Source of the DNA: Promethearchaeia archaeon
Lineage (GTDB): Archaea > Asgardarchaeota > Lokiarchaeia > Sigyniarchaeales > SOKP01
Assembly (NCBI GenBank): GCA_029856235.1
Contig: JAHQWP010000218.1
Location: 70-64,069 of the forward strand
Reading direction: 5' to 3'
Length of the DNA stretch: 64,000 nt
How positions within the stretch are numbered: the first letter of the stretch is position 1; every line of letters begins with the position of its first letter. Shown here one piece after another: positions 25,334 through 46,883 of the stretch. A program made the position numbers and the translations under genes. Below the pieces are notes generated by a model that did not search any database, had not been told where the DNA came from, and saw only the letters and a list, made by a program, of their open reading frames with translations.

Positions 25334-27742
25334 TTATTGAATTTTTATTTTATTTCGTTCTTTTAAAAGTAATAGTAAAGAGATTCCTAAAATGCTAAAG
25401 ATGATAAATAGACCATATCCGATAACAGGGTCTCCAGTTTCTAGGCAATCGTTATTTTCAAATACATTCCCAACGCAATCTCCAGATTCTCTGAAGCATT
25501 CACCTTTATTTCTAACTTTGTTATTCCTTATAGTATTATAGCTGCTATCACGAAAATCAATTCCATAATGTCCACTCCCATCAATAGAATTGTTGACAAT
25601 TAAATTAGAATCACTCTCCCCTAATTGAATGCCATCCGTATAAGAAGTGATATGATTAGAATCTATAGTATTGTTTGATGATTCATAAATATCAATTCCA
25701 TGAAAATCACTATCTATGGTATTATGGCTTATTTGATTGAAATTACTTTGAAAGCTAATTCTTATTGGAGTTATACAGGCACTGAAATCATTGTCAGACA
25801 CATTATTGTTTTCACTATTCATATATAGATGCACTCCTCTGGTGTATGACAAAAAAGTATTGTCATAAACCTCATTATCACTACCACCACTAATAAGAAT
25901 ACCATTATGAGAATCCGTGAATCCTTGATCTAAATGATCTTGGAAAATGTTATGGAAAATCTTGTTACGTTGAGAACTACCTACATCTAAACCGTTATTA
26001 TGATTTCCAGAGATAGCATTAGAAGAGATATTGGAGTCACTTATAGTTGTATATATGCCTGTGTCGCCATTATAGTCTGCAAAATTCATCGAGATTTCAT
26101 GCTTTCTTCCAGAAGAAATCCGTATCCCATGCTCATGATTATAAGACGCAGTATTTCCTTGAATAGTATTGTTAAATGACCCATGGACATATATCCCATA
26201 ACCGTTTCCAAATCCATAATCATGCCCATAATAATAAGAGCCAAAGAAATTATTATTTGCTTCGTTTGATTGAAGAGTACAATTTACGCTATTTTGTATG
26301 AAGATACCTCCATCTCCATTGAAATTAGTTATTGAATCGACTATTTCACACAAATCGCAGTTATTAAGATAAATTCCAAATCCAGTATTATTATTTGACA
26401 CAATATCAGATAATATTACATTGCGACATTCAATTAGACTCGCACCTATAGTTCCAAAACTAAGATCTAAATTTGAAGCTTGAGAATCGTTACACCTTAA
26501 TAAAACAACTTGGCCAGCGTTAACAAAATCACTGTTAGATAGATTTTTAGTAGAATTATAATAATATAATTTTTTACCATTTACTAAATTTGTGTTAGAA
26601 ACAAAATTGGTGATTAACGAATCAGTCGAGCCCCAAACATTTACACCGCAATTAAAAAGCTCATTATCCGTTATATTGTTATACTCCACATTATCTATAT
26701 TAATACCACAGATATGGTTATTGCTAGCGTTATTAAGGTTAATTTTGTTGTATTGGACTATCTCATAACCGGTCCAATCGGTCAGATCAATACCAATAGT
26801 GTTATCAAAAACAGTGTTTGAACTTATGTTATTAAAGGTAGCGCCACCTGCTAGTTTGATTCCAGAATCTGTATTATTGAAAACTATATTTTCTGTGATA
26901 TGATTGTTGCTAGTATATCCCATTCTTATTCCATCGTTGTTTCTCGTAATGATATTCTCTGAGACAGTATTATTTTTACATGAATTTAATACTATCCCCT
27001 CTTGACCGTTGTTCGTAATCGTATTCTTAATTAACTGGTTATTTTCGCCGCTTAAAGATATTCCGTCATCATCGCTATTGGTTATATGATTTTCTGAGAT
27101 CATATTATTATTCCCATCCACTATTAATCCTCTATTTCTATCCGAATTAGATATCGTATTGTTAAAAATAGTTGTCCCATTACAATTTTCAAGATACATA
27201 TTAAATTCACGAGTAGATCTAATGATATTCCCTGAAAACCAATTATCATAGCTATTTAGGAAGTAAACGCCATACTTATTATAAAACAGGTCACAATCTA
27301 CTACTCTCCCGTTGGATACATTATCGAACTCTATTGCGTAAGCCTCGAAATTACCATAAACATCTTTTATTCCACAGTCGTTAATTCTGAAGTGGACATC
27401 TGAATTCCTTATTTCTATAGCGTTAGAACCGTATCCAGGAGCAAAAAATGTATTTTCAATTAAATATGGATTTAAAAAAGTATTGCCAGGACCACCTGAG
27501 CACCACGCGTAAGTAGATGCGGTATATGCCCAATCCATCGTGGGATTAGTATTATCAATCTCGATATCAGTAAAGTTGTAGAGATACGAGGTTTTTAAGG
27601 AATCTTTTTCAAATTCCGTGTTGATATCACTTTCCTTTTCAGTAAAATAAAAACCATCGTAAAAGAAATTGAATGTAAAAGATATTCCTAACAAAATTAC
27701 GCATATTATAAAAAGCATTTCTATCTTATTTTTAGATTTCAT
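25334..27742 (-). CDS. right-handed parallel beta-helix (NosD/pectate-lyase-like) surface protein, C-terminal TM anchor (copy 1)
   Basis: 802 aa. Signal/anchor at the N-terminus. Dozens of ~22-aa N/G/I-rich repeats (NxIxxNxxxGIxL). C-terminal GYGLFIIFSILGISLLLLL + KERNK. Confidence 0.85.
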   Translation of the reverse strand: MKSKNKIEMLFIICVILLGISFTFNFFYDGFYFTEKESDINTEFEKDSLKTSYLYNFTDIEIDNTNPTMDWAYTASTYAWCSGGPGNTFLNPYLIENTFFAPGYGSNAIEIRNSDVHFRINDCGIKDVYGNFEAYAIEFDNVSNGRVVDCDLFYNKYGVYFLNSYDNWFSGNIIRSTREFNMYLENCNGTTIFNNTISNSDRNRGLIVDGNNNMISENHITNSDDDGISLSGENNQLIKNTITNNGQEGIVLNSCKNNTVSENIITRNNDGIRMGYTSNNHITENIVFNNTDSGIKLAGGATFNNISSNTVFDNTIGIDLTDWTGYEIVQYNKINLNNASNNHICGINIDNVEYNNITDNELFNCGVNVWGSTDSLITNFVSNTNLVNGKKLYYYNSTKNLSNSDFVNAGQVVLLRCNDSQASNLDLSFGTIGASLIECRNVILSDIVSNNNTGFGIYLNNCDLCEIVDSITNFNGDGGIFIQNSVNCTLQSNEANNNFFGSYYYGHDYGFGNGYGIYVHGSFNNTIQGNTASYNHEHGIRISSGRKHEISMNFADYNGDTGIYTTISDSNISSNAISGNHNNGLDVGSSQRNKIFHNIFQDHLDQGFTDSHNGILISGGSDNEVYDNTFLSYTRGVHLYMNSENNNVSDNDFSACITPIRISFQSNFNQISHNTIDSDFHGIDIYESSNNTIDSNHITSYTDGIQLGESDSNLIVNNSIDGSGHYGIDFRDSSYNTIRNNKVRNKGECFRESGDCVGNVFENNDCLETGDPVIGYGLFIIFSILGISLLLLLKERNKIKIQ

Positions 27743-27886: not shown

Positions 27887-30295
27887 TCATTTATTTTTTT
27901 TTATTTGTTTTTTTAAAAGTAATAGAAAAGAGATTCCTAATACGCTAAAGAGGATGTATAAATCAAATCCACCGATAATATCTCCAGTTTCTTGGCAGAC
28001 ATTATTTTCAAATACATTCCCAACGCAACCTCCAGATTCTACAAAGCAATTAGCTTTATTTCTTATTGTGTTATCTCGTATAGTGTTATAACTAGCATGA
28101 TGGAGTTCAATACCAGTAAAGCCACTCCCCTTAAGAGTGTTATTAACAATTAAATTATAATCACTATCCATTGCTTTTATGCCTGATTGATAACTAGTAA
28201 TTTCATTAGAATCTACAGTATTATTTGAGGATTCTTCTATATCAATTCCCCCCCAATCACTATTGATGGTATTATAACTTAAGTAATTGTGATGGCTATT
28301 GTAGTATATTTTGATTGGTGTTATACAGTCACTAAAATCGTTGTTAAAAACAACATTGTCTTCACTAGATGAATATAGGTGCACTCCTCTGGTGTATGAT
28401 GAAAATGTATTATCATAAATGTCATTCTGTATACTATTCGTTAAATAAACGCCATTGTGAGATGTCAAGAACCCTTGACCGGAATGGTCTTGTACGATGT
28501 TCTGATAAACCTTGTTATCTGTACAAGCATCTAAATGCAAACCGTTATCGTAATTTCCAGAAATAGTATTTGAAAATATATTCGTGTTTCGTAGTCCAAC
28601 TACAAAAATACCTGAGTCGCCATTGTAATCTACATAATTCATCGAGATTTCATGATCTCTTCCAGATGGGATCTCTATCCCATGCTCGTGGTTATAAGAC
28701 GCTGTATTTCCTTGAATACTGTTATTAAAGGAGCCATGGGCATAAATTCCATTGCCAATTCCAAAATCATAAAGATAGCCATAAATATAAGAGCCAAAGA
28801 AATTATTATTTGCTTCGTTTGATTGAATAGTGCAATTAAAACTATTTTTCATAATAATTCCACCATCTCCGTTGAAATTAGCTTCCGATTCTCCTATTTT
28901 ACATAAATCGCAGTTATCAAGAAAAATACCATATACAGTATTATTATTAGACAATATGTTGGAGAATACTACATTACGGCATTCAATTAAAATAAGACCG
29001 ATAGTGCCGAAACTAAGATCTAAATTTGAAACTTGAGAATCGTTGCACCTTACCAATATAACTTGACCAGCGTTAACAAAATCACTGTTAAATAAATTAC
29101 TGGTTGAATTATAAAAATAAAGCTTTTTACCATTCACTAGATTTGTATCGGATATAAAGTTGGTAATTAACGAATCAGTCGAGCCCCAAACATTTACACC
29201 GTTATTAATTAGATTGTTATCCGTTATGTTATTATACTCCACATTATCTATATTAATACCACAAAGAGCATTATTGCTAGCATTATTTAAGTTAATTTTA
29301 TTATACTGAACAGTATTATATTGCTCGGTCAGATCAATACCATAAGTGTTATACTCAACGGTGTTTTCAGTTATATTATTGAAGTTAGCCTCATCTCCAT
29401 CTAACCTGATTCCAGAAATTCTATTATATGAAGCTATATTTTTTTTTATGTGATTATTAGTAGCATAACGAATTCTTATACCGTTTAAGTAATTAGCGAT
29501 AATAATATTCTCGGAGATAGTATTATTTTTACAATCAAATAGTGCAATCCCATCATCTCCGCTATTCATAATAGTATTCTTAATTAACTGGTTATTTTCA
29601 CCGGATAAATAGATTCCGTAATCAGCAGTATGGTTTATATAATTTTCTGAGATCAAATTATTATCCCCATCAATTAGAATTGCGGAATTCCTCGTATTTG
29701 TCAAAGTATTATTGAAAATAACAGTATCATTAGAGTTTTCAAAATAAATATTGTAATCCTCAGTATTGTCAAGAACATTCCCTGAAAACCAATTATCATA
29801 ACTATTAAGGAAGTGAACGCCATACTTGTTATTAAAAAAGTCGCAATCTACTACTCTCCCGTTAGACACATTATCAAACTCTATAGCGTACGATTCCCAA
29901 TTACCCCAAGCATGTTCTATTCCACAGTCTTTAATTCTGAAGTGGACATCTGAATTCCGTATTTCCATAGCATTAGGGCCATAACCTGGTGTAAATAAGG
30001 TATCCTCAATAAAATAAGGGTTTGAAATGTCTCCAGGACCACCTGAGCACCATGCGTAAGTAGATTCCGTATAAGCCCAATCCATAGAAGGATTAGTGTT
30101 ATCAATCTCAATATTTGTAAAGTTGTAGAGATACGAGGTTTTTAAGGAATCTTTTTCAAATTCCGTGTTGTTATCACTTTCCTTTTCAGTGAAATAAAAA
30201 CCACTATTAATTGTAAACGATTTGAATGTAAAAGATATTCCTAACAAAATTACGCATATTATAAAAAGCATTTCTATCTTTTTTTTAGATTTCAT
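27887..30295 (-). CDS. right-handed parallel beta-helix surface protein (copy 2, tandem paralogue)
   Basis: 802 aa, collinear with 25334..27742. The N-terminal ~90 aa and several internal blocks are nearly identical. Confidence 0.85.
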   Translation of the reverse strand: MKSKKKIEMLFIICVILLGISFTFKSFTINSGFYFTEKESDNNTEFEKDSLKTSYLYNFTNIEIDNTNPSMDWAYTESTYAWCSGGPGDISNPYFIEDTLFTPGYGPNAMEIRNSDVHFRIKDCGIEHAWGNWESYAIEFDNVSNGRVVDCDFFNNKYGVHFLNSYDNWFSGNVLDNTEDYNIYFENSNDTVIFNNTLTNTRNSAILIDGDNNLISENYINHTADYGIYLSGENNQLIKNTIMNSGDDGIALFDCKNNTISENIIIANYLNGIRIRYATNNHIKKNIASYNRISGIRLDGDEANFNNITENTVEYNTYGIDLTEQYNTVQYNKINLNNASNNALCGINIDNVEYNNITDNNLINNGVNVWGSTDSLITNFISDTNLVNGKKLYFYNSTSNLFNSDFVNAGQVILVRCNDSQVSNLDLSFGTIGLILIECRNVVFSNILSNNNTVYGIFLDNCDLCKIGESEANFNGDGGIIMKNSFNCTIQSNEANNNFFGSYIYGYLYDFGIGNGIYAHGSFNNSIQGNTASYNHEHGIEIPSGRDHEISMNYVDYNGDSGIFVVGLRNTNIFSNTISGNYDNGLHLDACTDNKVYQNIVQDHSGQGFLTSHNGVYLTNSIQNDIYDNTFSSYTRGVHLYSSSEDNVVFNNDFSDCITPIKIYYNSHHNYLSYNTINSDWGGIDIEESSNNTVDSNEITSYQSGIKAMDSDYNLIVNNTLKGSGFTGIELHHASYNTIRDNTIRNKANCFVESGGCVGNVFENNVCQETGDIIGGFDLYILFSVLGISFLLLLKKQIKKNK

Positions 30296-30909: not shown

Positions 30910-32025
30910 TTAAGTTTGGAGGGTAACATTAAAACATTTTTTCTTTATCACTTCTTCGCCTACATCAGCAATTCTTCGTGACAGTTCAGAGATTTTCCAT
31001 TTCTCGTGCCCTTTTACATATGTAGAAAATATATCTTGAAGAGGGTCTCTCCATTTAGAAGGGATGTTATCAACTCCTAATTTAGCACCAAGAATTGCTC
31101 CAATATTGCCGCAATTACAGTCAGTATCGTATCCCATCATAGCAGCAACACAAATAGATTTTCCGAACGAATCTCGTTTATCCTGAACACCATATAGAAG
31201 AGCCAATATGATTATTCCAATGTTTGGTAATACATGCACTCCTCCTAGACGAGTATTCAAAAACATCCTTCTTTCTATTGGAAAAATGGAAGAAGAATCA
31301 AGTACTTTTTCTACCATCTCTTTTATCCAAAAATCTCTTATCAAAATCTTCCGGGCAGCTCTAAAATCGTTTGGATATTGTTCGTATATATTTATTGCTT
31401 TTTTAACCATCTGAGTATATAAACTTTCTTTCTCCGAAGGGAGATATTGAAGAGCTGTCTCAATATTGTATCTAATATCCTCTTCAAAGAACGCTTGAGA
31501 GAGTAAAACTGCAATAAACACTTCTCCTTCAATACCAATTCCAGCATGTGAGATGGAACCATCAATTTCTGCATAATTCTTAGCAAGACTTGGGCAACCT
31601 GGAGTTATTAGTCCCCAAATATCCGCTCTCATCTGAGCGCCTATAAAATCAAAATAAAAATTGTTTAAAATTCCAGATTGAGGAGGTTGAATTCCAGCTT
31701 TAAGATTATTTAAAGCTATTTTTTCTGCAGTAAATACATAATCTTCTCTTTTAAGGAGATTGACCCATTCACGAGCAATTTTCTCGGCCGTAATATCAAT
31801 ACCGTATTTTTCTAATGCTATTAAAGCAATAATCTCATACATTTCATCATCATTAACATGATTAAGATCAATTGGTTCGGGGTAACTTATAATGTCACCA
31901 TATTTAGCTTTAATGCTTGCATAAGATTTCAATTCAACAGGGATACCAACGAAATCTCCAGCAACTCGTCCCAACCACGAGCCAAAAACTTTATTGTAAT
32001 ACTCCTCAGAAGTTATTTCTTTCAT
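30910..32025 (-). CDS. ADP-ribosylglycohydrolase family protein
   Basis: N-terminal GSWLGRVAGDFVGIPVE, DDEMYEI, and C-terminal MGYDTDCNCGNIGAILGA (the GxDTDx(3)GxxxGA metal-site motif of the ARH/DraG family). Confidence 0.8.
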   Translation of the reverse strand: MKEITSEEYYNKVFGSWLGRVAGDFVGIPVELKSYASIKAKYGDIISYPEPIDLNHVNDDEMYEIIALIALEKYGIDITAEKIAREWVNLLKREDYVFTAEKIALNNLKAGIQPPQSGILNNFYFDFIGAQMRADIWGLITPGCPSLAKNYAEIDGSISHAGIGIEGEVFIAVLLSQAFFEEDIRYNIETALQYLPSEKESLYTQMVKKAINIYEQYPNDFRAARKILIRDFWIKEMVEKVLDSSSIFPIERRMFLNTRLGGVHVLPNIGIIILALLYGVQDKRDSFGKSICVAAMMGYDTDCNCGNIGAILGAKLGVDNIPSKWRDPLQDIFSTYVKGHEKWKISELSRRIADVGEEVIKKKCFNVTLQT

Positions 32026-36540: not shown

Positions 36541-38454
36541 TTAATTTGAAGGTAATAATTGCATTTCTTCCTCGATCTCTGCAAGAAAAAGGTCTACAAT
36601 TGCTAACCATCTATTCTTAGATTCCATATCGCCAATAATTTTACTTGTTAATTCTTTTCCTAACTCAAGATTTTGAGCTGCTAACTCGATATTTTCTAGT
36701 GCGGTGTAACAAATTCCGATTTTGATATAAGTTTGATGGATAAACCAGGCATTTGAATCAATTTCTATGGTTTTTTCGAATTCTTTTATGGCTTTTTTGT
36801 ATTCTTTAAAGTGTATTAAGATTTCTCCGTATGTATCGTGATAGATTCCTTTTTCTGGTTCGTTTTTTACGAGTTCGCGAAGAAGTTCCAGTGCTTCTTG
36901 TTTTTTATCCAGATATGATAACCAATACGCTTTATAATTACGAAGAAAATTGTCTTTTGGATATTTTTCAATTAAATCTTCAATGATTTCTAGGCCCCCT
37001 TCTAAATTTTTATCTTTTTTAAGAGTATACGCCTTTTTTATCATAATATCAGTCTCTTTTTCAGGAAATAGCTTCATCATCTCCTCCAATACCCTTAAAA
37101 CATCATTGTATTGGTTAAAATAGAGTAGAATTCGTAATTTTGAATTGTATAAATCGTAATTCGTTGGAGCTAAGGAAATTTCTTTATCGATTTCATTAAT
37201 TTTTTCTTTGTATTGAGAATCTAATGCGTTAGAATTCAGCGATTCCAATATATCTGTCATGTTCTGCCAAATTATCCCTTCGAGTTTATCATCTGTTCCT
37301 ATTAATTCTTTTTTTATCTCAATTTTATATGCTAAATATTTAATATAACCGGGTAAAAAAGCTCTAAGTGATTCCTTGAAATGTGCATGAAATAAAATTT
37401 CACAAATTTCGTTAAGAATATCATCTACAACAGAATTCATGTCTCCTAAATCTACAAATTTCTCCAAGTATTTGTTTGCCGCTATATGTTCTTCAGTAAT
37501 AGCTCGAAGTATCTTTTCTAATTTCTCATCTGAATGAAAATAATAATGTTTGTCTGGAGAAATATCTAATTTAAAAAACTGTAAATCATATAAGTCGCTT
37601 TCTACGATCTCATTTATCCAAAAATCAAGGATTCGCTTTTTAATTTCATAAAATCTCGAAAACTCCTCAAAAGATAAATAGTCAGGATAAAAATCGGGAT
37701 GATTAATTGAAAGAAAGAGGAGAATTTTGTGAAAATCTTCTTCGTCTTTTAGGATTGCATTAACTTTTGAGTAATCTAGTTTCAATATATTATTGAGAAA
37801 TCTAAATTTGACATGATTATCGTTAATATTAAATTTGTCAAAAAAGGGTTTAGTCTTTGTAGTAATCTCATCAATTCGTTTTCTTTCCTCTTCTAAGATA
37901 GTTTGTCTATCTAAATTGTATAGTTGTAGAATCTTCGAATATTCAGCTTTTCCCGATTGAGTAATTAAATATCTTTTATTTTCGTTGATGAGTAATCCCT
38001 TTTGGATTAATGAGTTTAAACTTTTTGATAACGACGATTGATTTATAGAAAATGGTTCTTCAAGAAAATCAGACCGTTTACAATAGCCATTATTGTAAAC
38101 CATCCATAGAATCCAATGGAAATAATTCCTCCCTCTTTTTAGGATTGCATCAGGTGGATAACTTAACACTCTTGCAGTTTTTCTCTCTTCTGATAGTTCA
38201 TTAAATCTCTCCTTCCCCTCTGGAGTTATTCTGTATTGTCCTCGGGAATACTTTTCTATATATCCTTTGAAGATTAATTTTGTGAAATGACGCGATAACG
38301 TAGAAATGGGAATTTCAATAGGCTTTTGTTCAAAGTTAGACCATTCACAACTTTCATTATTTGATAGCATCCAAAGAATTATATGGTCATAATTCCTTCT
38401 TTGTAGTTTCGAGGGGTTAAGAATCTCATCAGAAGGGTAATTTAATTTTCCCAT
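36541..38454 (-). CDS. dual winged-helix + TPR repeat protein
   Basis: Two N-terminal wHTH copies (HIILWMLSNNESCEWSNF...STLSRHFTKLIFKGYIEK..YRITPEGKERF and HWILWMVYNNGYCKRSDF...SSLSKSLNSLIQKGLL...YLITQSGKAEY). The C-terminal ~200 aa are TPR-like. Confidence 0.7.
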   Translation of the reverse strand: MGKLNYPSDEILNPSKLQRRNYDHIILWMLSNNESCEWSNFEQKPIEIPISTLSRHFTKLIFKGYIEKYSRGQYRITPEGKERFNELSEERKTARVLSYPPDAILKRGRNYFHWILWMVYNNGYCKRSDFLEEPFSINQSSLSKSLNSLIQKGLLINENKRYLITQSGKAEYSKILQLYNLDRQTILEEERKRIDEITTKTKPFFDKFNINDNHVKFRFLNNILKLDYSKVNAILKDEEDFHKILLFLSINHPDFYPDYLSFEEFSRFYEIKKRILDFWINEIVESDLYDLQFFKLDISPDKHYYFHSDEKLEKILRAITEEHIAANKYLEKFVDLGDMNSVVDDILNEICEILFHAHFKESLRAFLPGYIKYLAYKIEIKKELIGTDDKLEGIIWQNMTDILESLNSNALDSQYKEKINEIDKEISLAPTNYDLYNSKLRILLYFNQYNDVLRVLEEMMKLFPEKETDIMIKKAYTLKKDKNLEGGLEIIEDLIEKYPKDNFLRNYKAYWLSYLDKKQEALELLRELVKNEPEKGIYHDTYGEILIHFKEYKKAIKEFEKTIEIDSNAWFIHQTYIKIGICYTALENIELAAQNLELGKELTSKIIGDMESKNRWLAIVDLFLAEIEEEMQLLPSN

Positions 38455-38653
38455 TTTCTAAAAGATCAAAATCTTATTTTCGATAGGTATAATTTGGGAA
38501 CATTTCTATTTATATCTATTTTTCAAAACTTCCACAAATTTTCGGAATTTCCAAGGAACTACCGGAAGTGGAACTATAAATGGATGAATATCTACATTTT
38601 TCATTGATCATCATTTAGATGATAAATTTAGAATTAAAATCAAAAAAAAAGAG

Positions 38654-39358
38654 ATGAATAAAAAGAAAATGCTAGTGAAAAAGAAATTAAAAGTGACTAA
38701 AACACTTATCGCAGCATCATTTTTCATAACTATTATAGCAATTATGACACCAGTGATGGCAGCTGGGTCTAATCGCTTCTTATTCATAGCAATAGGAGAT
38801 GATCTAGATCTCGATGCCACTAATCTTATCGTAGGCAAAATTGAGCTCGATGAATGCGGTGAACCCTTATCAGGGCAAGTAGTTTTCCATCAAAGAATCT
38901 ACGATTCAGGTGAAAAAGTGTATACGATGAAAGGAACGCTTAAAAAAGGATCACTAAATACCTCTAAACATGTGTTCTATTGTCCCATCTTTAATGCCTG
39001 GTGGATTAACGTTTGGTGGATTGAGGGTGAGGGGAAGTTTAAAACTACTAATACAGATTATACAGTATTTTTCCGAAATTCGATGTTTTTAATGATGCCA
39101 AATACGGAAGGTAAATACATCCCGGCTACCATTTTTATGTGGCTAAGCCTTACAAAAGAATATTATCCGGGAGAGTTTGATAACGAGGGTAACCTTCTTC
39201 CTCCACCGTTGGGCGAAGATCCTTTAATTTCGAAAGGAGAAAGTTGGGTACTTGCTGGAGTTTTTTGGGATACAGGTATAGAAATGGATTTTGGATATGG
39301 AATAGGGATAGTACCAATCGGTCCAGTGTCCAATTTAACAAGATACATTAAATTCTGA
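38654..39358 (+). CDS. secreted protein, unknown function
   Basis: Basic N-terminus plus hydrophobic core and AAG cleavage-like site (LIAASFFITIIAIMTPVMAAGS). Confidence 0.55.
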   Translation: MNKKKMLVKKKLKVTKTLIAASFFITIIAIMTPVMAAGSNRFLFIAIGDDLDLDATNLIVGKIELDECGEPLSGQVVFHQRIYDSGEKVYTMKGTLKKGSLNTSKHVFYCPIFNAWWINVWWIEGEGKFKTTNTDYTVFFRNSMFLMMPNTEGKYIPATIFMWLSLTKEYYPGEFDNEGNLLPPPLGEDPLISKGESWVLAGVFWDTGIEMDFGYGIGIVPIGPVSNLTRYIKF

Positions 39359-39489
39359 AACCAATAGCGCCGAATCTATCATGAAAAATAAGATAATATT
39401 CTCTAAAATCTTTTTTTTTTTTAAAACCACATTGATAGTCAATTTGATGATAATAATAAAATAGCAAATAAATTGAGTTGATAAAAAAA

Positions 39490-39885
39490 ATGACTGAAAT
39501 TAAAAAATTAACAAAAATCGCACTTATAGTCGATGCTATTATTTGGTTCATATTTGGGGTCATGCTTGTCTTTCTATATGATATGACATTGAATTATGAG
39601 GGTTGGACAAATCCACTTCACGTAAGAGCTTTTGGAGGTATCTGTTTTGTTGCTTTCCTTTTTGTAATTATAATGCTTCGCAAAAAGGAATGGGAGGAGA
39701 TTAAATTGCTGTTTATTTGTTTAATTAGCATGTGTATATCAGTAATAATTGTTGAAGCTACAGTATTAGCAATGTTTGCGTCAACATTTATGGCTGCCAC
39801 GGTATCTCAGATGATCTTCGATTTAATTATAAATGCTGCAAAAAATATTCTTAGTATTGTCGCCTATATCAAACAGAGAAGCTAA
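39490..39885 (+). CDS. membrane protein (4 TM)
   Basis: The ORF track starts at TTG 39478; in-frame ATG at 39490 (MTEIKKL...). T13 tract 39910-39922 lies downstream. Confidence 0.55.
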   Translation: MTEIKKLTKIALIVDAIIWFIFGVMLVFLYDMTLNYEGWTNPLHVRAFGGICFVAFLFVIIMLRKKEWEEIKLLFICLISMCISVIIVEATVLAMFASTFMAATVSQMIFDLIINAAKNILSIVAYIKQRS

Positions 39886-39909
39886 ACGCCATAATTTAAA
39901 AAATTTCTA

Positions 39910-39922
39910 ATTTTTTTTTTTT
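39910..39922 (+). terminator. oligo-T tract
   Basis: T13, 25 nt after the stop at 39885. Confidence 0.4.
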
Positions 39923-40047
39923 ATCCTTATTTAGAGAAAATGTTCTGACTTTCTTTAATGGAATTAACCACTAGATTTAAAACACAATTTAGTTTATATT
40001 AGTAAATATATCCAAAATTGTCATGATTTAAAATATTTTTTAAGTAG

Positions 40048-41739
40048 ATGTTTCTTCCAGAAATTAAAGGTTTGAATCCCGTAAAAGAACTTAGAGAAGA
40101 GGGGAAAATAAAGGAAGCCTTACATATTGTTTTAGAATTAGAACAAGGAGATGATCTTTCTCTTAAAGAATTACTCTCATATAAACTTGTTAAAGCTAAT
40201 CTATTACGTATTTCAGGAAACCACTTAGCCGCAATTGAAATTGCTAAAGAGATTTTTCAAGAATTTAAGAAACTAGGAGATTTAGTATCGTCATTTGACG
40301 CTTTACTCATTCAAGGTTATTCCTATATGATAACGGCCAATCTAACTCAAGGCGAAGATTTAATTAGGCAAGCAGAAAATTTATTTAAAATAATTAAAAC
40401 AAAATTTTCAATAGACCTAAGAGAAAGAGAATCTTTCTTGGTAAGGATACAGTCTATGTCTTACTTTTTTAAGGGAGATATTCTCACTTCTCTTGAATTG
40501 AATAAAAAAGCTTATGAACTAGCCAAAGACACAGGCAATAAAGCATTGATTTCTACGAGTCTTAATAATATTGCTGACAAATTTTATCATATGAAAGAAT
40601 ATGATAAAGCAATCATGTATGCTAAGCAAGCTGTTAAAGTTAATTATAGCCCATCATTGGCAGCTGCGTTATCTACTTTAATTGAAATTTATGTCAGTAA
40701 GGGAGATATTAAAGAAGCGAAAGTTTATCTTGATCAATTGCGTTATCATTCCAAGAAACTTGATTTTAAACGAAAAAAAAATACATATTACAGTTCAAAG
40801 GCTACGATATTAAAATCAAGTCTACGAGCAAGAGATCGTATCAAAGCGGAAGATATATTTAAAAAGTTAGCTATGGACAATACAATATTTAGTTATATAC
40901 GGATTGAAGCAATTATTGACTTATGTGATTTATATCTCACTGAACTTCGGATAACTAATGACCCTGAGGTAATAAACGATATACACCCATATATTCAAGA
41001 ATTGTTAAGTATTGCAGAAAAGCAACATTTATATTTATATTTAGCCGAAACTTACCTTTTGCAAGCAAAACTTTCATTATTAACTTTGGATATAAAGGAA
41101 GCTAAACGATTTTTAACTCAAGCTCAAAATATAGCAGAATCAAATGGGATAAAACGATTAGCAATGAAAATCTCATATGAGCATGATGAATTACTCAGAA
41201 AAACCAAAATGTGGGAGAATTTGAAAGTTTCTGAAGCGTCTTTATCTGAACGTTTGGAGCTTACTGGTTTGAACGAACAAATGGAAAATATGGTAAAAAG
41301 ACGAATGATTGAAGTTCCAGAGATATCAAAAGAAGACCCTGTTATGCTCTTAATCTTAACGGAGGGTGGTAATCTTTTGTTCTCTAAAAAATTTATAAAG
41401 GCTTTTTCTCTTGAGGATGATATATTAGGGGGCTTTCTAACTTCGATAAATTATTTTATTAGTGAGGTATTTTCAGAAGGTCTTGATAGGGCAGTTTTTG
41501 GTCAATACACTCTTCTTATGATGCCCATTCAACCATTTTTAGTTTGTTATATCTTTAAAGGGGACTCGTATTTTGCTCACCATAAGATTAAAAATTTCCT
41601 TGATTCCATACAGAATGATAGTGTTATTTGGCAATCTTTACAGAAATTTTTCCAAAAGAGTAAATCAGTTCAATTTGACAATATTCCGTCGCTTGAATCG
41701 TTGATAACAGAGATCTTTATTGAGAAAGAAAAATCTTAG
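40048..41739 (+). CDS. TPR-repeat protein with conserved C-terminal longin/roadblock-like alpha/beta domain (copy 1)
   Basis: 563 aa. TPR-like helical repeats (e.g. YHMKEYDKAIMYAKQAVKVN). C-terminal domain from ~nt 41335 (EDPVMLLILTEGGNLLFSKKF...DDILGGFLTSINYFISEVFSEGLDRAVFGQYTLLM). Confidence 0.75.
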   Translation: MFLPEIKGLNPVKELREEGKIKEALHIVLELEQGDDLSLKELLSYKLVKANLLRISGNHLAAIEIAKEIFQEFKKLGDLVSSFDALLIQGYSYMITANLTQGEDLIRQAENLFKIIKTKFSIDLRERESFLVRIQSMSYFFKGDILTSLELNKKAYELAKDTGNKALISTSLNNIADKFYHMKEYDKAIMYAKQAVKVNYSPSLAAALSTLIEIYVSKGDIKEAKVYLDQLRYHSKKLDFKRKKNTYYSSKATILKSSLRARDRIKAEDIFKKLAMDNTIFSYIRIEAIIDLCDLYLTELRITNDPEVINDIHPYIQELLSIAEKQHLYLYLAETYLLQAKLSLLTLDIKEAKRFLTQAQNIAESNGIKRLAMKISYEHDELLRKTKMWENLKVSEASLSERLELTGLNEQMENMVKRRMIEVPEISKEDPVMLLILTEGGNLLFSKKFIKAFSLEDDILGGFLTSINYFISEVFSEGLDRAVFGQYTLLMMPIQPFLVCYIFKGDSYFAHHKIKNFLDSIQNDSVIWQSLQKFFQKSKSVQFDNIPSLESLITEIFIEKEKS

Positions 41740-41914
41740 AATCATAAAATTCTTTTTTATGATACATTTATTGTATACCGTCTTTCTTGTATTGATTCGG
41801 TCCAAAGATACATGAAATTAATAAGCACTTTTTTACATTATATTTAAAACACAATTTAGCTTATATTAGTAATTATATACAAAAATGTCTTGATTTAAGA
41901 TGTTTATTGAGTAG

Positions 41915-43603
41915 ATGTTTCATCCTGAGATTAAAGGTTTGAATTCAGTAAGGCAACTTAGAGAAGAGGGGAAAATAAAGGAAGCCTTCCAAATTATTTT
42001 AGAATTAGAACAAGGAGACGATCTTTCTCTCAAAGAATTACTCTCATATAAACTTGTTAAAGCTAATCTATTAATTCAGTTAGGAAAATTTTTAGACGCA
42101 ATTGAACTTGCTAAGGAAATTTTTCAAGAATTTCAGAAACTAGGAGATTTAGTATCATCATTAGATGTTTTACTCATTCAAGCTTATACCCATATGATAA
42201 TGATAAATTTAAGTGAATGTGAAGATGTAATTAGGCAAACTGAAGATTTATTTAAAATAATTAAAGCAACATCTTCACTAGATCTAAGAGAAAGAGAATC
42301 TTTGTTTGAAAGGATAAAGGCTGGTATTCATTTTTTTAAGGGGGATATTCACACTTCTCTAGAATTGAATAAAAAAGCTTATGAACTTGCCAAAGACACT
42401 GGCAATAAAGCATTGATTTCTGCGAGTCTTAATAATATTGCTGACAAATTTTATCATATGAAAGAATATGATAACGCAATAAAATATGCAAAAGAAGCCT
42501 TTAAGATTAAAAATAATCGACACTTGGCAGTTGTGTTAGGTACCTTAATTGAAACTTATGTCAGTAAGGGAGATATTAAAGAAGCGAAAGTTTATCTTGA
42601 TCATTTGCGTTATCATTCCAAGAAAATTGATACCAAAAATTCTAAAACTTTTTATTATATTTCTAAGGCTACGATATTAAAATCAAGTCTACGAGCAAGA
42701 GACCGTATTAAAGCTGAAGAAATATTTAATAAGTTAGCTTTGGACGATACATTACTTAGTGAGCCACGGATTACAGCGATCATAAATTTATGTGATTTAT
42801 ACCTAACTGAACTTCGGATAACTAATGACCTTGAGATACTAAATGAGATACAACCATATATTCAAAAGTTGCTATATATTGCTGAAGATCAACATTTATA
42901 TTTATATTTAGCCGAAACTTATTTTTTGCAAGCCAAACTTTCATTATTAACTTTAGATATAAAGAAAGCTAAGCGATTTTTAACTCAGGCTCAAAAAATA
43001 GCAGAATCATATGGTATAAAACGATTGGCAATGAAAATTTCGTACGAACATGATGAATTACTCAGAAAAACCAAAATGTGGGAGAATTTGAAAACTTCTG
43101 ATGTTTCTTTATCTGAACGTTTGGAGCTTACTGGTTTGAACGAGCAAATGGAAAATATGATAAAAAGACGAATGATAGAAGTTCCAGAAATATCAAAAGA
43201 AGACCCTGTTATGCTCTTAATCTTAACGGAGGGTGGGAATCTTTTATTCTCTAAAAAATTTTTGACAGATTTTTCTTTTGAAGACGATATTTTAGGAGGT
43301 ATCTTGACCACCATAAATTTTATTATTAGTGAGATATTTTCTGAAGGGCTTGATAGAGCAGTTTTTGGTCAATATACGCTTCTTATGAAGCCTGCTCAAC
43401 CATTTTTAGCATGTTATATCTTTAAAGGACACTCGTATTTTGCTCACTATAAAATTAAAAATTTTATTGATTCCATACAGAATGATAGTGTTATTTGGCA
43501 ATCTTTACAGAATTTTTTCCAAAAGAGTAAATCAGTTCAATTAGACGATATTCCCTCGTTTGAATCATTGATTACAGAAATCTTTGTTGAAAAAAAAAAA
43601 TAG
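41915..43603 (+). CDS. TPR-repeat protein with conserved C-terminal longin/roadblock-like domain (copy 2)
   Basis: 562 aa, collinear near-duplicate of 40048..41739. C-terminal domain from ~nt 43199. Confidence 0.75.
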   Translation: MFHPEIKGLNSVRQLREEGKIKEAFQIILELEQGDDLSLKELLSYKLVKANLLIQLGKFLDAIELAKEIFQEFQKLGDLVSSLDVLLIQAYTHMIMINLSECEDVIRQTEDLFKIIKATSSLDLRERESLFERIKAGIHFFKGDIHTSLELNKKAYELAKDTGNKALISASLNNIADKFYHMKEYDNAIKYAKEAFKIKNNRHLAVVLGTLIETYVSKGDIKEAKVYLDHLRYHSKKIDTKNSKTFYYISKATILKSSLRARDRIKAEEIFNKLALDDTLLSEPRITAIINLCDLYLTELRITNDLEILNEIQPYIQKLLYIAEDQHLYLYLAETYFLQAKLSLLTLDIKKAKRFLTQAQKIAESYGIKRLAMKISYEHDELLRKTKMWENLKTSDVSLSERLELTGLNEQMENMIKRRMIEVPEISKEDPVMLLILTEGGNLLFSKKFLTDFSFEDDILGGILTTINFIISEIFSEGLDRAVFGQYTLLMKPAQPFLACYIFKGHSYFAHYKIKNFIDSIQNDSVIWQSLQNFFQKSKSVQLDDIPSFESLITEIFVEKKK

Positions 43604-43709
43604 AAGAATTGTATTATTCAATCACTCCAGCTCCCCAAAATTTTATATTAAACTAAAACTAATCTTACATTAAAAAAGAATTTTATTTTCATTAAGAAAT
43701 AGAAATCTA

Positions 43710-44264
43710 ATGAAGAACTCGGAGGAATTTCGATTTAAGATTGTAGTCGTTGGAGATGGAGCAGTAGGTAAAACATCCTTAATTAAGAAATTCACTAAGG
43801 GAACATTTGAAAAGGATTATGTAAAAACCATAGGAGCTCAATTATCAAAATATAGCAAAGAAATTAATGGAGACATGATTAGATTAATATTTTGGGATAT
43901 CGCCGGTCAAGCTGATTTCAATTTTCTCCATCACTTGTTTTATAAAGAAAGTAGAGCAGCTATCATAGTAATTAGCCTTGAGGAGAACGATTTAGGCAAG
44001 AACAGCTTCATGCATATAGAAAATTGGTATAATGAATTAAGAAAGTATTGTGGCGATATACAGGTTGTTTTATTCGCTAATAAAGTTGATTTAGTAGAGA
44101 ATGATAATATTAATAACATGAAAATTCAAGAACTTGTTCACAAATATAATTTCCTTGGAAGTTTCATTACATCTGCAAAAACGGGGGAGGGTGTAATAGA
44201 AGCATTTAACGCGATTATTGAGAAGTTATACAACAAATATAAACAACTTTCTACTCAAAAATGA
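43710..44264 (+). CDS. Rab/Ras-like small GTPase
   Basis: G1 GDGAVGKT, switch I YVKTIG, G3 WDIAGQ, G4 NKVD, G5 TSAKTG. 184 aa, no C-terminal Cys. Confidence 0.9.
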   Translation: MKNSEEFRFKIVVVGDGAVGKTSLIKKFTKGTFEKDYVKTIGAQLSKYSKEINGDMIRLIFWDIAGQADFNFLHHLFYKESRAAIIVISLEENDLGKNSFMHIENWYNELRKYCGDIQVVLFANKVDLVENDNINNMKIQELVHKYNFLGSFITSAKTGEGVIEAFNAIIEKLYNKYKQLSTQK

Positions 44265-45962: not shown

Positions 45963-46526
45963 TTAGGTAGGTTTTCGTTTCCAAATTTTAATAGATTCAA
46001 AAATAAATACAGAAGTGCAATAAATTATAAAAAACAGAAAAAGTAGGCTAGCTGGATTAGTAATAAATGCATCACCATAAATGGTCGCAAGATATGTATA
46101 TCCTATCACACCTAGAATATTAATAACTAAGTATAAAGAATATCGAGGAATCATAAGTGGTCCTATGCGAAAATAAAATCCTAACACACCCTTTTTTACA
46201 CCATCCTTCACATAATATTTACCATCTTCATCGTTTTTTGTAACAATCCCTGCTTTCAATAATTTATTTAATTGATAGGTAACAGTTCCAGGAGATACCA
46301 TTTTTAATGCCTTCTGAATCTCTCTTACTCCCGCGCGATGATGAGTTAAAATATACCAATACACTTGGAGAATCTTCCCTTGCAATACTTTTTCCCGATT
46401 GTCCTTTTTTTTTTGTTCTTGTACATCAGAATCTGACATTGCAAGTGAAGTTCTATTTTTTGATTTCGAGGATCTATAAGTTATTACAAGTCCTTCCTTT
46501 TTATACTTTCTCCCACTTGGTGTCAT
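45963..46526 (-). CDS. winged-helix (ArsR/MarR-like) protein with two C-terminal TM helices
   Basis: ILQVYWYILTHHRAGVREIQKALKMVSPGTVTYQLNKLLKAGIVTKNDEDGKYYV, then 2 hydrophobic segments. Confidence 0.6.
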   Translation of the reverse strand: MTPSGRKYKKEGLVITYRSSKSKNRTSLAMSDSDVQEQKKKDNREKVLQGKILQVYWYILTHHRAGVREIQKALKMVSPGTVTYQLNKLLKAGIVTKNDEDGKYYVKDGVKKGVLGFYFRIGPLMIPRYSLYLVINILGVIGYTYLATIYGDAFITNPASLLFLFFIIYCTSVFIFESIKIWKRKPT

Positions 46527-46622: not shown

Positions 46623-46883
46623 TTAACCAATTGATTGTTTCCATCTTCTTAAGGCTCTCTTTTTTTTTATTAAATCTGATTCATCCTTAACTACAGGGGC
46701 TACGGTAATCTTTTCCTTCTGTTCTAGATTGACATCTTCTTTTAAGTAATATTTACCATCGTCATCATTCTTTGAAATAATCCCTGCCTTCACAAATTTA
46801 TTTTTTTGATAGGATGCAGCTCCAAGAGAAACCATTTTTAAGGTCTTTTGAATTTCCCTTACTTCCGCCCGATTATGTGTCAT
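46623..46883 (-). CDS. truncated paralogue of the wHTH protein (possible gene remnant), start overlaps stop of beta-helix gene
   Basis: MTHNRAEVREIQKTLKMVSLGAASYQKNKFVKAGIISKNDDDGKYYL matches residues ~60-105 of 45963..46526. It lacks the first helix and the TM tail. Confidence 0.35.
   Translation of the reverse strand: MTHNRAEVREIQKTLKMVSLGAASYQKNKFVKAGIISKNDDDGKYYLKEDVNLEQKEKITVAPVVKDESDLIKKKRALRRWKQSIG

Follow-up and report, generated by a model that had tools for sequence, protein, structure and literature searches.

Asgard archaea contain on the order of a hundred small GTPases per genome, next to dozens of longin and roadblock proteins, and the question is which regulator is paired with which GTPase. 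In the cultured strain MK-D1, small-GTPase genes are generally not part of an operon together with genes for roadblock, longin or TRAPPC3 proteins (Tran et al. 2024, PMC10933270), which makes GTPase partners hard to predict from gene order, and an operon analysis of Loki GTPases has been listed as an open question (Dey et al. 2016, PMC4917890). Here, we analysed a stretch of 64,000 nt (the window) of a contig from a Promethearchaeia archaeon of the Lokiarchaeia (GenBank assembly GCA_029856235.1, contig JAHQWP010000218.1). It carries two neighbouring genes, ORF A and ORF B (ORF, open reading frame), each encoding N-terminal tetratricopeptide repeats (TPRs) and a C-terminal domain modelled as a longin fold, directly upstream of a gene for a Rab-like small GTPase on the same strand. 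Are these TPR-longin proteins the partners of the GTPase encoded next to them? Based on gene order, structure prediction and co-divergence, we estimate a probability of roughly 55% that they belong to the adjacent GTPase as its cognate longin-domain partners or regulators within a conserved cassette. This cassette represents a rare gene-order clue to regulator-GTPase pairing in the closest prokaryotic relatives of eukaryotes.

Conserved linkage of TPR-longin genes to a Rab-like GTPase gene

The initial annotation of this DNA, made from the letters alone, had proposed a module of three genes. The triplet was recovered, but it is the downstream part of a larger unit, a conserved six-gene cassette of Lokiarchaeia-type Asgard archaea (36541-44264), which also includes a divergently oriented gene and two genes for membrane or secreted proteins. 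The grammar of the cassette can be written as W< [s>] [t>] (L>)x1-3 G>, where W denotes a protein with a winged helix-turn-helix (wHTH) and TPRs, s a secreted protein, t a protein with four predicted transmembrane segments, L a TPR-longin protein and G the GTPase; s and t are optional. The window harbors a single cassette with the order W< s> t> L> L> G>, the same as in locus L014.

Mapping of the window proteins by tblastn to 73 distinct loci from species-representative genomes, nearly all labelled as Asgard, revealed that this grammar recurs. The proposed adjacency of TPR-longin and GTPase genes is kept across Asgard archaea: of the array-terminal TPR-longin genes, 77 had sufficient sequence beyond their 3' end, and 50 of these were followed within 450 bp by an orthologue of the GTPase, 63-86% identical to that of the window and mostly separated by a gap of 97-143 nt (exactly 106 nt between the stop codon of ORF B and the GTPase ORF in the window). 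Since in Lokiarchaeum only 109 of 5381 genes, about 2%, encode small GTPases (Dey et al. 2016, PMC4917890), this linkage lies far beyond chance. The other 27 genes had the same GTPase within 2 kb in three cases and a different neighbour in 24. The boundaries of the cassette were always W and G, and an orthologue of W was located at the same divergent position in most loci having sufficient upstream DNA. Orthologues of s were detected at the equivalent position in many loci, as were orthologues of t, which are sometimes also placed between TPR-longin genes, and s and/or t were present in 22 of the 25 cassettes with W directly upstream. Cassettes are often arranged head to tail, with several per genome. 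Duplication of the TPR-longin gene, presented as a feature of the module by the initial annotation, holds for the window, but not as a rule: the arrays preceding a GTPase gene (n=51) contained one L gene in 34 cases, two in 10 and three in 7, so that duplication is optional and a single gene is the commonest state.

The 184-aa GTPase displays all G boxes (GDGAVGKT, YVKTIG, WDIAGQ, NKVD and SAK), and its basic and aromatic tail, ending in KQLSTQK, lacks Cys, as noted before. Pfam analysis revealed a match to Ras (3.4e-37, 128 bits with a cut-off of 21.6), compared with 46 bits for Arf and 31 bits for Gtr1/RagA, and the best PDB sequence matches were Rab23 (105 bits), Rab43, Rab21, the Thorarchaeota Rab 7ezb, Rab35 and Rab18 (90-105 bits), followed by Ran and RhoA with about 82 bits. 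By its sequence, the protein is Rab/Ras-like, not Arf-, Rag- or MglA-like. Rab proteins carry the motifs RabF1-F5 (IGVDF, KLQIW, RFrsiT, YYRGA and LVYDIT), and the segments at these positions of the GTPase read IGAQL, RLIFW, DFNFLH, FYKES and IVISLE. As both RabF motifs and a prenylation Cys are missing, we refer to it as Rab-like and not as a Rab proper. The G motifs, including the catalytic Gln of DxxGQ, are conserved in 64 orthologues of about 75% identity, and intact G1-G5 motifs together with this Gln point to a working switch that needs regulators.

Fold and divergence of the longin domain

A search with a family profile against 1.84 billion cluster representatives revealed 998 representatives at E<=0.001 and 745 at E<=1e-10, most of them 560-700 aa in length with the longin domain at the C-terminus. 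Named homologues originated without exception from Asgard metagenome-assembled genomes (MAGs), mostly labelled as Promethearchaeota (Lokiarchaeia), others as Hermod-, Hod-, Thor-, Odin- or Heimdallarchaeota, in agreement with an Asgard origin of the module. In public records they are called "tetratricopeptide repeat protein", "hypothetical protein" or, by mis-assignment, "PilW", and the longin part is unannotated. In locus L001 (6726-8681; 84-kb contig, GCA_054391055.1), a TPR-longin was called as two genes, encoding 402 aa of TPRs and 226 aa of linker and longin, to be explained either by an error (frameshift or assembly) or by a natural split of the protein.

The last approximately 147 aa of ORF A and ORF B gave zero Pfam matches, and the C-terminal domain of about 135 aa itself had nothing in Pfam at E<=10 or in NCBIfam. 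An AlphaFold2 model of the domain (34-sequence alignment; predicted local distance difference test, pLDDT, 79; predicted template modelling score, pTM, 0.77) displayed the element order b-b-a-b-b-b-a-a-a (E14-22, E27-32, H41-56, E65-68, E71-78, E81-88, H93-107, H109-121 and H131-141). The same elements appeared in the full-length AlphaFold model (64-sequence alignment; pLDDT 83, pTM 0.69), where the helices preceding beta1 are part of a low-confidence linker. According to Tran et al. (PMC10933270), longin domains are distinguished from roadblock domains by the lack of an N-terminal helix and by an extra C-terminal helix, and the domain model agrees with this description of a longin in its five-stranded sheet, the absence of a helix before beta1 and its C-terminal helices. 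Foldseek comparison with the PDB resulted in a top 28 consisting nearly entirely of longin domains (E 4e-5 to 5e-3; template modelling (TM) scores up to 0.60-0.65), namely sigma subunits of AP-1/2/3 (from 4e-5), zeta-COP, Sec22b, the TRAPP subunits sedlin, Bet5 and Trs23, SRX of the SRP receptor, Mon1-Ccz1, BLOC-3, Ykt6 and VAMP7. The sole roadblock-type match among them was at rank 21 (7t3b_G, 124 aa, its type being inferred from its length). LAMTOR, MglC and HBXIP ranked under the longins (82-118 aligned columns, TMq 0.34-0.45), and the Pfam family Robl_LC7 had no match in the window domains or in 36 relatives. The domain model also lacks the order a-b-b-a-b-b-b, starting with an N-terminal helix, of roadblock/LC7/MglB proteins. 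Thus, element order and Foldseek ranking narrow the formerly proposed longin- or roadblock-compatible fold to a longin fold, which we consider very probable from the models. This call rests on structure prediction and on weak matches of relatives to PF19036 (Fuz_longin_1), the first longin domain of FUZ, MON1 and HPS1. It was the only recurring Pfam family, detected in 6 of 36 diverse members when scanned singly (best E 0.0063), and relative P0273 reached 25.7 bits over residues 431-507 with a cut-off of 26.1.

In the 36-sequence alignment of diverse members, just E429, G441, F475, R481, Y501 and G505 were invariant. Conservation of the longin domain peaks in alpha1, the alpha1-beta3 loop (FSEGLDRAxFG, with pLDDT <50 at residues 474-478), beta3 and the KGxSY turn after beta5, and the C-terminal helices are its least conserved part. 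Mon1-Ccz1 and TRAPP bind their Rabs on a surface built from the alpha1 helices of two dimerised longins (PMC5216073), and in the model the conservation hot spot occupies the equivalent face.

ORF A and ORF B were indeed found to be near-duplicates (563 and 562 aa; 80% identity over 562 aa, gap-free), and the duplication includes the leader. About 75 nt before each ATG are approximately 90% identical, with similarity beginning near 39972 and 41839, and the regions farther upstream are unrelated. The tandem duplication is fairly recent. The TPR-like nature of the N-terminal part was supported by TPR_12 (about 8e-12; 45.5 bits with a cut-off of 30.1), which together with a MalT-like TPR region spans residues ~49-367 of both proteins in Pfam. 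Top Foldseek matches of the modelled TPR superhelix were LGN/Pins, Rap phosphatases and subunits of the APC/C, a likeness that suggests no more than a binding scaffold.

That most substitutions between the copies fall into the TPRs, as initially annotated, was only partly right, since identity amounts to 78% in the TPR part and 86% in the C-terminal domain; the nonsynonymous divergence (dN) is 0.126 and 0.073, respectively. Nei-Gojobori estimates of omega between the two ORFs were 0.33 overall, 0.43-0.58 for the TPRs, 0.15 for the longin domain and 0.07 for linker residues 401-428, the most constrained stretch of all. An omega of 0.33 indicates purifying selection on both copies, so that neither resembles a pseudogene. 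Synonymous divergence (dS) is not reduced in the longin part (0.49 versus 0.29 in the TPR part), and thus its conservation reflects constraint and argues against recent gene conversion. The linker is constrained yet poorly modelled, a combination that often marks a segment folding on a partner and may do so here. Among same-locus paralogue pairs, the median identity was 76% for the longin and 52% for the TPR part, and in 28 of 30 pairs the longin was the more similar part, in extreme cases by a margin such as 82% versus 31%.

Comparison of distance matrices for 32 complete pairs, each formed by a GTPase and the TPR-longin encoded closest to it, revealed a correlation between longin and GTPase of r=0.67 (Mantel p=0.001), and for the TPRs of the same proteins of r=0.06 (p=0.16); partial correlations were 0.67 and 0.09, respectively. 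Thus, the longin domain has diverged in step with the neighbouring GTPase, and the TPRs diverge or are exchanged independently. This fits a variable input with conserved coupling to one switch, as far as sequence distances can tell, and the earlier idea of the TPRs as a variable scaffold or sensor is in line with the selection, paralogue-divergence and co-divergence data alike.

Proposed coupling and competing explanations

A functional partnership between the longin domain and the GTPase appears quite probable to us, and a specifically guanine nucleotide exchange factor (GEF)-like role is a tentative proposal. An exchange factor would nevertheless be the most probable activity, because the only sequence affinity and several structural neighbours of the domain are GEF-type longins. 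Concerning physical binding, dimerisation and the direction of regulation, we infer that the longin together with its preceding linker could form homo- or heterodimers and dock on the GTPase via the alpha1 face, as the longin pairs of Mon1-Ccz1 and TRAPP do on their Rabs, and would there promote nucleotide exchange. For the fast-diverging TPR superhelix, we envisage binding of a variable input, be it a protein or a peptide, or of a cue for localisation, and several input-specific TPR-longin paralogues might converge on one switch. As W and G delimit every cassette, one may speculate that W is a downstream effector of the GTPase. An extension of this idea, which we regard as rather improbable, would be a eukaryote-type GTPase switch wired into a prokaryote-type transcription circuit, in which input-specific TPR-longin GEFs load the GTPase, which then acts via the TPRs of W, and in which the longin is an archaeal forerunner of the catalytic first longin of Mon1, Fuzzy and HPS1. 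The TPR-longins would then possibly sense the membrane and secreted proteins of their own cassette, and Lokiarchaeia would have expanded dozens of such cassettes of sensor, switch and transcription factor.

Several observations weigh against a coupling of longin and GTPase or against the fold on which it is based. A mirror-tree signal can stem from co-inheritance alone, and saturation of TPR divergence may lower the correlation between TPRs and GTPase. Short cassettes W< G> without L exist (e.g., L034 and L051), 17 of 68 GTPase matches had no TPR-longin gene directly before them (some of these being W-G cassettes), and about a third of the array-terminal members had no GTPase neighbour and were located beside housekeeping genes; thus, neither partner strictly requires the other. 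Given a promoter-like element for every gene and oligo-T tracts after some of them, a single operon cannot be inferred. No member tested reached a curated Pfam longin threshold (e.g., PF19036 or PF13774), the window domains revealed no Pfam longin match even at E<=10, and PDB profile searches by sequence, using narrow as well as broad alignments, gave nothing significant for the C-terminal domain. The catalytic SxDxR elbow loop of Mon1 sits between alpha2 and alpha3 (PMC5216073), and by inspection of the sequence no such loop was found at residues 509-547 in ORF A, where the domain is least conserved. Finally, relatives with fused TIR or RING domains imply that TPR-longin may be a general sensor-adaptor and not solely a GTPase regulator. 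For its part, the conserved FSEGLDRAxFG loop was considered as a counterpart of the Mon1 elbow loop and rejected on account of the position of the latter.

The GTPase-less loci mostly belong to one clade of about 50% longin identity and are followed by housekeeping genes, by a different Ras/Arf-like GTPase (L027) or by a second recurring set of unknown genes. In locus L036 (8768-11373), this set encodes proteins of 244 aa (+), 406 aa with a weak AAA-type P-loop match (-), 207 aa (-) and 414 aa (+), an arrangement repeated in L056, L058, L067 and L069. The TPR-longin family is wider than its GTPase pairing. Among the best 150 of the 998 representatives, C-terminal extensions were TIR, RING (P0149 and P0125) or a probably mis-joined CN-hydrolase; longin-GTPase fusions were not detected among these 150, and TIR fusions were rare, with two TPR-longin-TIR proteins (P0187 and P0198) and one longin-TIR protein (P0171). 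The TIR domains resemble ThsB and SAVED-TIR. In locus L075 (6001-10971; JGI 3300009034), TIR forms of 795 and 793 aa are encoded as a tandem pair without a downstream GTPase gene, which suggests that a TIR in cis can fill the slot held in trans by the GTPase.

Among the alternatives to a regulatory partnership, the most probable one, though we consider it unlikely, is that TPR-longins are effectors or adaptors, with the GTP-bound GTPase binding the longin and thereby recruiting or releasing a TPR-held partner. The best structural matches of the longin, i.e., adaptor sigma subunits, zeta-COP and SRX, would agree with this, and so would the resemblance of the TPR part to peptide- and protein-binding superhelices (LGN/Pins, Rap phosphatases, APC/C). 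Several paralogues per GTPase fit one switch with many outputs as well as one with many inputs, and the co-divergence is equally compatible. What speaks for a regulator instead is the sequence affinity, which favours the GEF longin family, whereas a Foldseek ranking among longins is weak evidence (TM 0.4-0.65, 9-17% identity); furthermore, Pfam and NCBIfam revealed no cargo or coat components among the cassette genes.

GAP-type longins, i.e., those acting as GTPase-activating proteins (GAPs), possess arginine fingers such as R164 of FLCN and R78 of NPRL2. As the main mechanistic alternative to an exchange factor, although somewhat less likely still than an effector, the longin of the cassette could be such a GAP, with the invariant R481 of the FSEGLDRAxFG loop, presumably next to the invariant Gly between beta1 and beta2, acting as arginine finger and complementing the Gln of the GTPase. 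R481 and G441 belong to the only six invariant columns among 36 sequences, the loop is conserved yet of low confidence, as expected of a mobile catalytic loop, and the GTPase retains the Gln of DxxGQ. In SMCR8, R147 is the arginine finger, and a GP motif just before or at the start of beta2 marks GAP-type longins (PMC12290439); many relatives carry a reminiscent GGxP at the start of beta2. However, ORF A and ORF B read TEGGNLLFS without Pro, so that the GP motif as defined is absent, and the GGxP of the relatives does not match GP. In addition, FLCN, NPRL2 and SMCR8 were missing from the top 50 Foldseek matches, in which the GEF-type TRAPP, Mon1-Ccz1 and BLOC-3 were present, and the sole Pfam affinity is to the Mon1/Fuz/HPS1 GEF longin.

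We see little likelihood that the cassette is an immune- or conflict-type sensor, in which a diversifying TPR would be coupled via a longin-like adaptor to an output (TIR in cis in some relatives, the GTPase in trans here), its copy number expanding as in immune receptors. The existence of TPR-longin-TIR, longin-TIR and RING architectures, the GTPase-less tandem pair of TIR forms in L075 with its likeness to ThsB and SAVED-TIR, the MalT-like TPR as the fastest-evolving part, and several, often tandem, cassettes per genome would fit such a sensor, as would a TIR protein and an ADP-ribosylglycohydrolase close by in the window. However, PADLOC gave no match for ORF A, ORF B, the GTPase, s or t and weak generic wHTH/TPR matches only for W, omega was <1 throughout without a sign of positive selection, and neither a STAND NTPase nor a nuclease effector was found. 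The GTPase is highly conserved (about 75% identity), TIR fusions are rare, and the cassette and its flanking genes are syntenic across MAGs (e.g., L025), unlike typical variable defence islands. TPR domains can serve as effectors of small GTPases, as in p67phox with Rac and SgmX with MglA, but that W is the GTPase partner here and the TPR-longins are passengers without GTPase contact, sharing just regulation or history, appears similarly improbable: W-G cassettes without TPR-longin, W and G as constant boundaries and separate promoter-like elements for all genes would suit it, whereas the spacing from longin to GTPase is tight and specific, and longin, not TPR, divergence tracks the GTPase.

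Layout of the cassette and its surroundings

The features of the cassette and of its surroundings are compiled in Table 1. W showed matches to HTH_45, HTH_34, MarR and TPR in Pfam and to Sso10a and a MamA-like TPR in NCBIfam and is a predicted transcription regulator; its TPRs revealed no specific relationship to those of L (E 0.24). For s, Pfam and NCBIfam scans gave no match and no recognised domain, and t is a predicted integral membrane protein. TATA-like elements were located before each of L1, L2 and G, and s, t and L1 are each followed by an oligo-T tract; the spacer between L2 and G contains no T-tract. Its element AAAATTTTATATTA is kept, in a few cases as a one-base variant, in nearly all of the 48 longin-to-GTPase spacers that were aligned, and its conservation reaches clades with only about 55% longin identity. 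A scan for sigma-70 promoters resulted in 45 sites with 43.8 expected, the bacterial consensus being uninformative for an archaeon, and a terminator scan found no hairpin terminators. The cassette genes are clustered and probably co-regulated. Thus, the term "in cis" used for the GTPase in the initial annotation holds in the sense of clustering, but not in that of an operon.

Table 1. Position of cassette features and of further genes in the window
Feature	Position	Strand	Remarks
W, 637 aa	36541..38454	-	two N-terminal winged-helix DNA-binding domains, C-terminal TPRs; divergent from the other cassette genes
s, 234 aa	38654..39358	+	N-terminal hydrophobic signal or anchor; optional member
t, 135 aa	39478..39885	+	about 4 hydrophobic segments, read by eye from the sequence; optional member
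Leader of ORF A	39972..40047	+	duplicated; TATA-like element TTTATATTA at 39993, about 55 nt before ATG
L1 = ORF A, TPR-longin, 563 aa	40048..41739	+	ORF, alignment, models
TPR superhelix of ORF A	40075-41229	+	residues 10-394; about 20 helices, pLDDT mostly >90
Linker of ORF A	41230-41331	+	residues 395-428; conserved; pLDDT <50 at 407-427
Longin domain of ORF A	41332-41721	+	residues about 429-558; domain and full-length models
Leader of ORF B	41839..41914	+	duplicated; TATA-like element TTATATTA at 41861
L2 = ORF B, TPR-longin paralogue, 562 aa	41915..43603	+	longin domain about 43199-43585
Element AAAATTTTATATTA	43637..43650	+	like a B recognition element (BRE)/TATA box; within the 106-nt spacer, about 60-70 nt before the GTPase ATG
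G, Ras-superfamily Rab-like GTPase, 184 aa	43710..44264	+	Pfam Ras, G1-G5 motifs
Ubiquitin-like protein, 110 aa	36093-36425	-	directly downstream of W; Pfam ubiquitin, 1.1e-6
TIR_2 protein, 417 aa	33782-35035	+	C-terminal TIR, Pfam 2.6e-7; about 1.5 kb from the cassette
ADP-ribosylglycohydrolase	30910-32025	-	near the cassette
NosD/right-handed beta-helix proteins, 802 aa each	25334-27742; 27887-30295	-	tandem paralogues
NosD/right-handed beta-helix protein, 411 aa	46880-48115	-	
Giant ORF, 3542 aa	10848-21476	-	
Adjacent ORFs	45963-46526; 46623-46883	-	common winged-helix-like segment
Equal-length ORF pair, 337+337 aa	49182-51201	+	
Equal-length ORF pair, 122+122 aa	52830-53572	+	

The ubiquitin-like protein has a 95% identical counterpart at the same position in locus L025 and ends in ...TAGCF, not in a GG motif. 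The N-terminal 275 aa of the TIR_2 protein are uncharacterised, and as a candidate carrier of the longin it was rejected, since no such longin-like domain is present in it. Likewise, a 562-aa ORF at 1240-2928, considered as a third paralogue due to its equal length, turned out to be unrelated. The set of NosD-type proteins looks like a further local tandem duplication of probable surface proteins. The two adjacent ORFs at 45963-46526 and 46623-46883 have in common a winged-helix-like segment (…REIQKALKMVSPGTVTYQLNKLLKAGIVTKNDEDGKYY… versus …REIQKTLKMVSLGAASYQKNKFVKAGIISKNDDDGKYY…), and the second one looks like a truncated duplicate of the first. Together with these, the equal-length pairs of neighbouring ORFs suggest frequent tandem duplication in this genome region.

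Comparison with known systems

Full-text searches of the literature revealed neither a family of TPR-fused longins nor this cassette as described before, though earlier cataloguing is possible, be it in the asCOG tables or by Klinger et al. 2016, who reportedly list 41 Loki longin-like domains. The cassette offers a conserved and testable pair, consisting of a defined Rab-like orthogroup and an unannotated longin family of about 1,000 representatives, and its natural variation, with 1-3 paralogues, GTPase-less clades and TIR-substituted forms, lends itself to experimental work. If GEF activity and a relationship to the first longin of Mon1, Fuz and HPS1 are borne out for the longin, core Rab activation would predate eukaryogenesis; if the GTPase in fact feeds into a transcription circuit, a longin-based Rab-GEF mechanism would be older than eukaryogenesis and than any link to membrane traffic. 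Should the longin instead turn out to belong to a TIR-linked sensor, longin domains would be tied to immune-type signalling. Already known in Asgard archaea are longin and roadblock proteins, longin-GTPase fusions, a neighbourhood of LAMTOR1-like, Rab-like and DENN genes, and NPRL2- and FLCN-like longins (10.1101/2020.10.19.343400; PMC10933270; PMC12290439).

As to characterised systems, the tri-longin Rab GEFs Mon1-Ccz1 (Rab7/Ypt7), Fuzzy-Inturned (Rab23) and HPS1-HPS4/BLOC-3 (Rab32/38) have the modelled longin fold in common with the cassette protein and, like the cassette, pair paralogous longin proteins with a Rab or Rab-like GTPase. The likeness extends to the sub-threshold similarity to PF19036 and to the presence of Mon1-Ccz1 and BLOC-3 among the Foldseek matches. 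Fuzzy-Inturned is the GEF of Rab23, and Rab23 was the best PDB match of the cassette GTPase, with a small margin over other Rabs. Conservation of the cassette longin is concentrated on the alpha1 face, by which Mon1-Ccz1 binds Ypt7 (PMC5216073). In contrast to the tri-longin GEFs, the cassette protein contains one longin instead of three, located C-terminally of about 20 TPR helices, the system is archaeal, and its GTPase has no prenylation site. An obligate heterodimer, as in tri-longin GEFs, appears doubtful, since 34 of the 51 GTPase-preceding arrays consist of a single gene.

TRAPP (Bet5/Trs23 or TRAPPC1/C4; GEF for Ypt1/Rab1) is near in structure (sedlin 2j3w with TM 0.60-0.65; 3cue, 7b6d, 7e2c and 7u05) and uses a longin dimer as a Rab-binding platform (PMC5216073). 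However, Pfam and NCBIfam revealed no Bet3/TRAPPC3-type subunit in the cassette, and TRAPP has no TPR fusion. The longin GAPs FLCN-FNIP, GATOR1 NPRL2-NPRL3 and C9orf72-SMCR8 and their Asgard look-alikes (PMC12290439) also contain longins acting on small GTPases, and the invariant Arg and the invariant Gly of the beta1-beta2 turn might be a shared trait; the cassette longin differs from them by the lack of a GP motif and of a following DENN domain and by its putative client, which is of the Rab/Ras and not of the Rag/Arf type.

With respect to gene order, an Asgard module of a LAMTOR1-like roadblock protein, a Rab-like GTPase and DENN (Liu et al., bioRxiv 10.1101/2020.10.19.343400) is also a conserved neighbourhood proposed to act as a GEF module. 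The cassette has TPR-longin proteins in place of roadblock and DENN and additionally comprises W, membrane proteins and a multi-copy tandem layout; a text search revealed no mention of a TPR-longin architecture. Bacterial MglA-MglB, with MglB as roadblock GAP, is likewise a prokaryotic GTPase encoded beside a partner of the roadblock/longin superfamily, and MglC was a weaker Foldseek match. In contrast to it, the modelled fold of the cassette protein is that of a longin, with no N-terminal helix and with extra C-terminal helices, and the GTPase has a catalytic Gln and is not MglA-like. Finally, the SRX longin of SR-alpha (bound by SR-beta-GTP), AP sigma and zeta-COP of Arf-regulated coats, the top structural neighbours of the cassette longin, exemplify longins as GTPase effectors or adaptors rather than regulators, but the cassette contains no components of the SRP receptor or of coats, and its GTPase is not of the Arf/SR-beta type (46 versus 128 bits).

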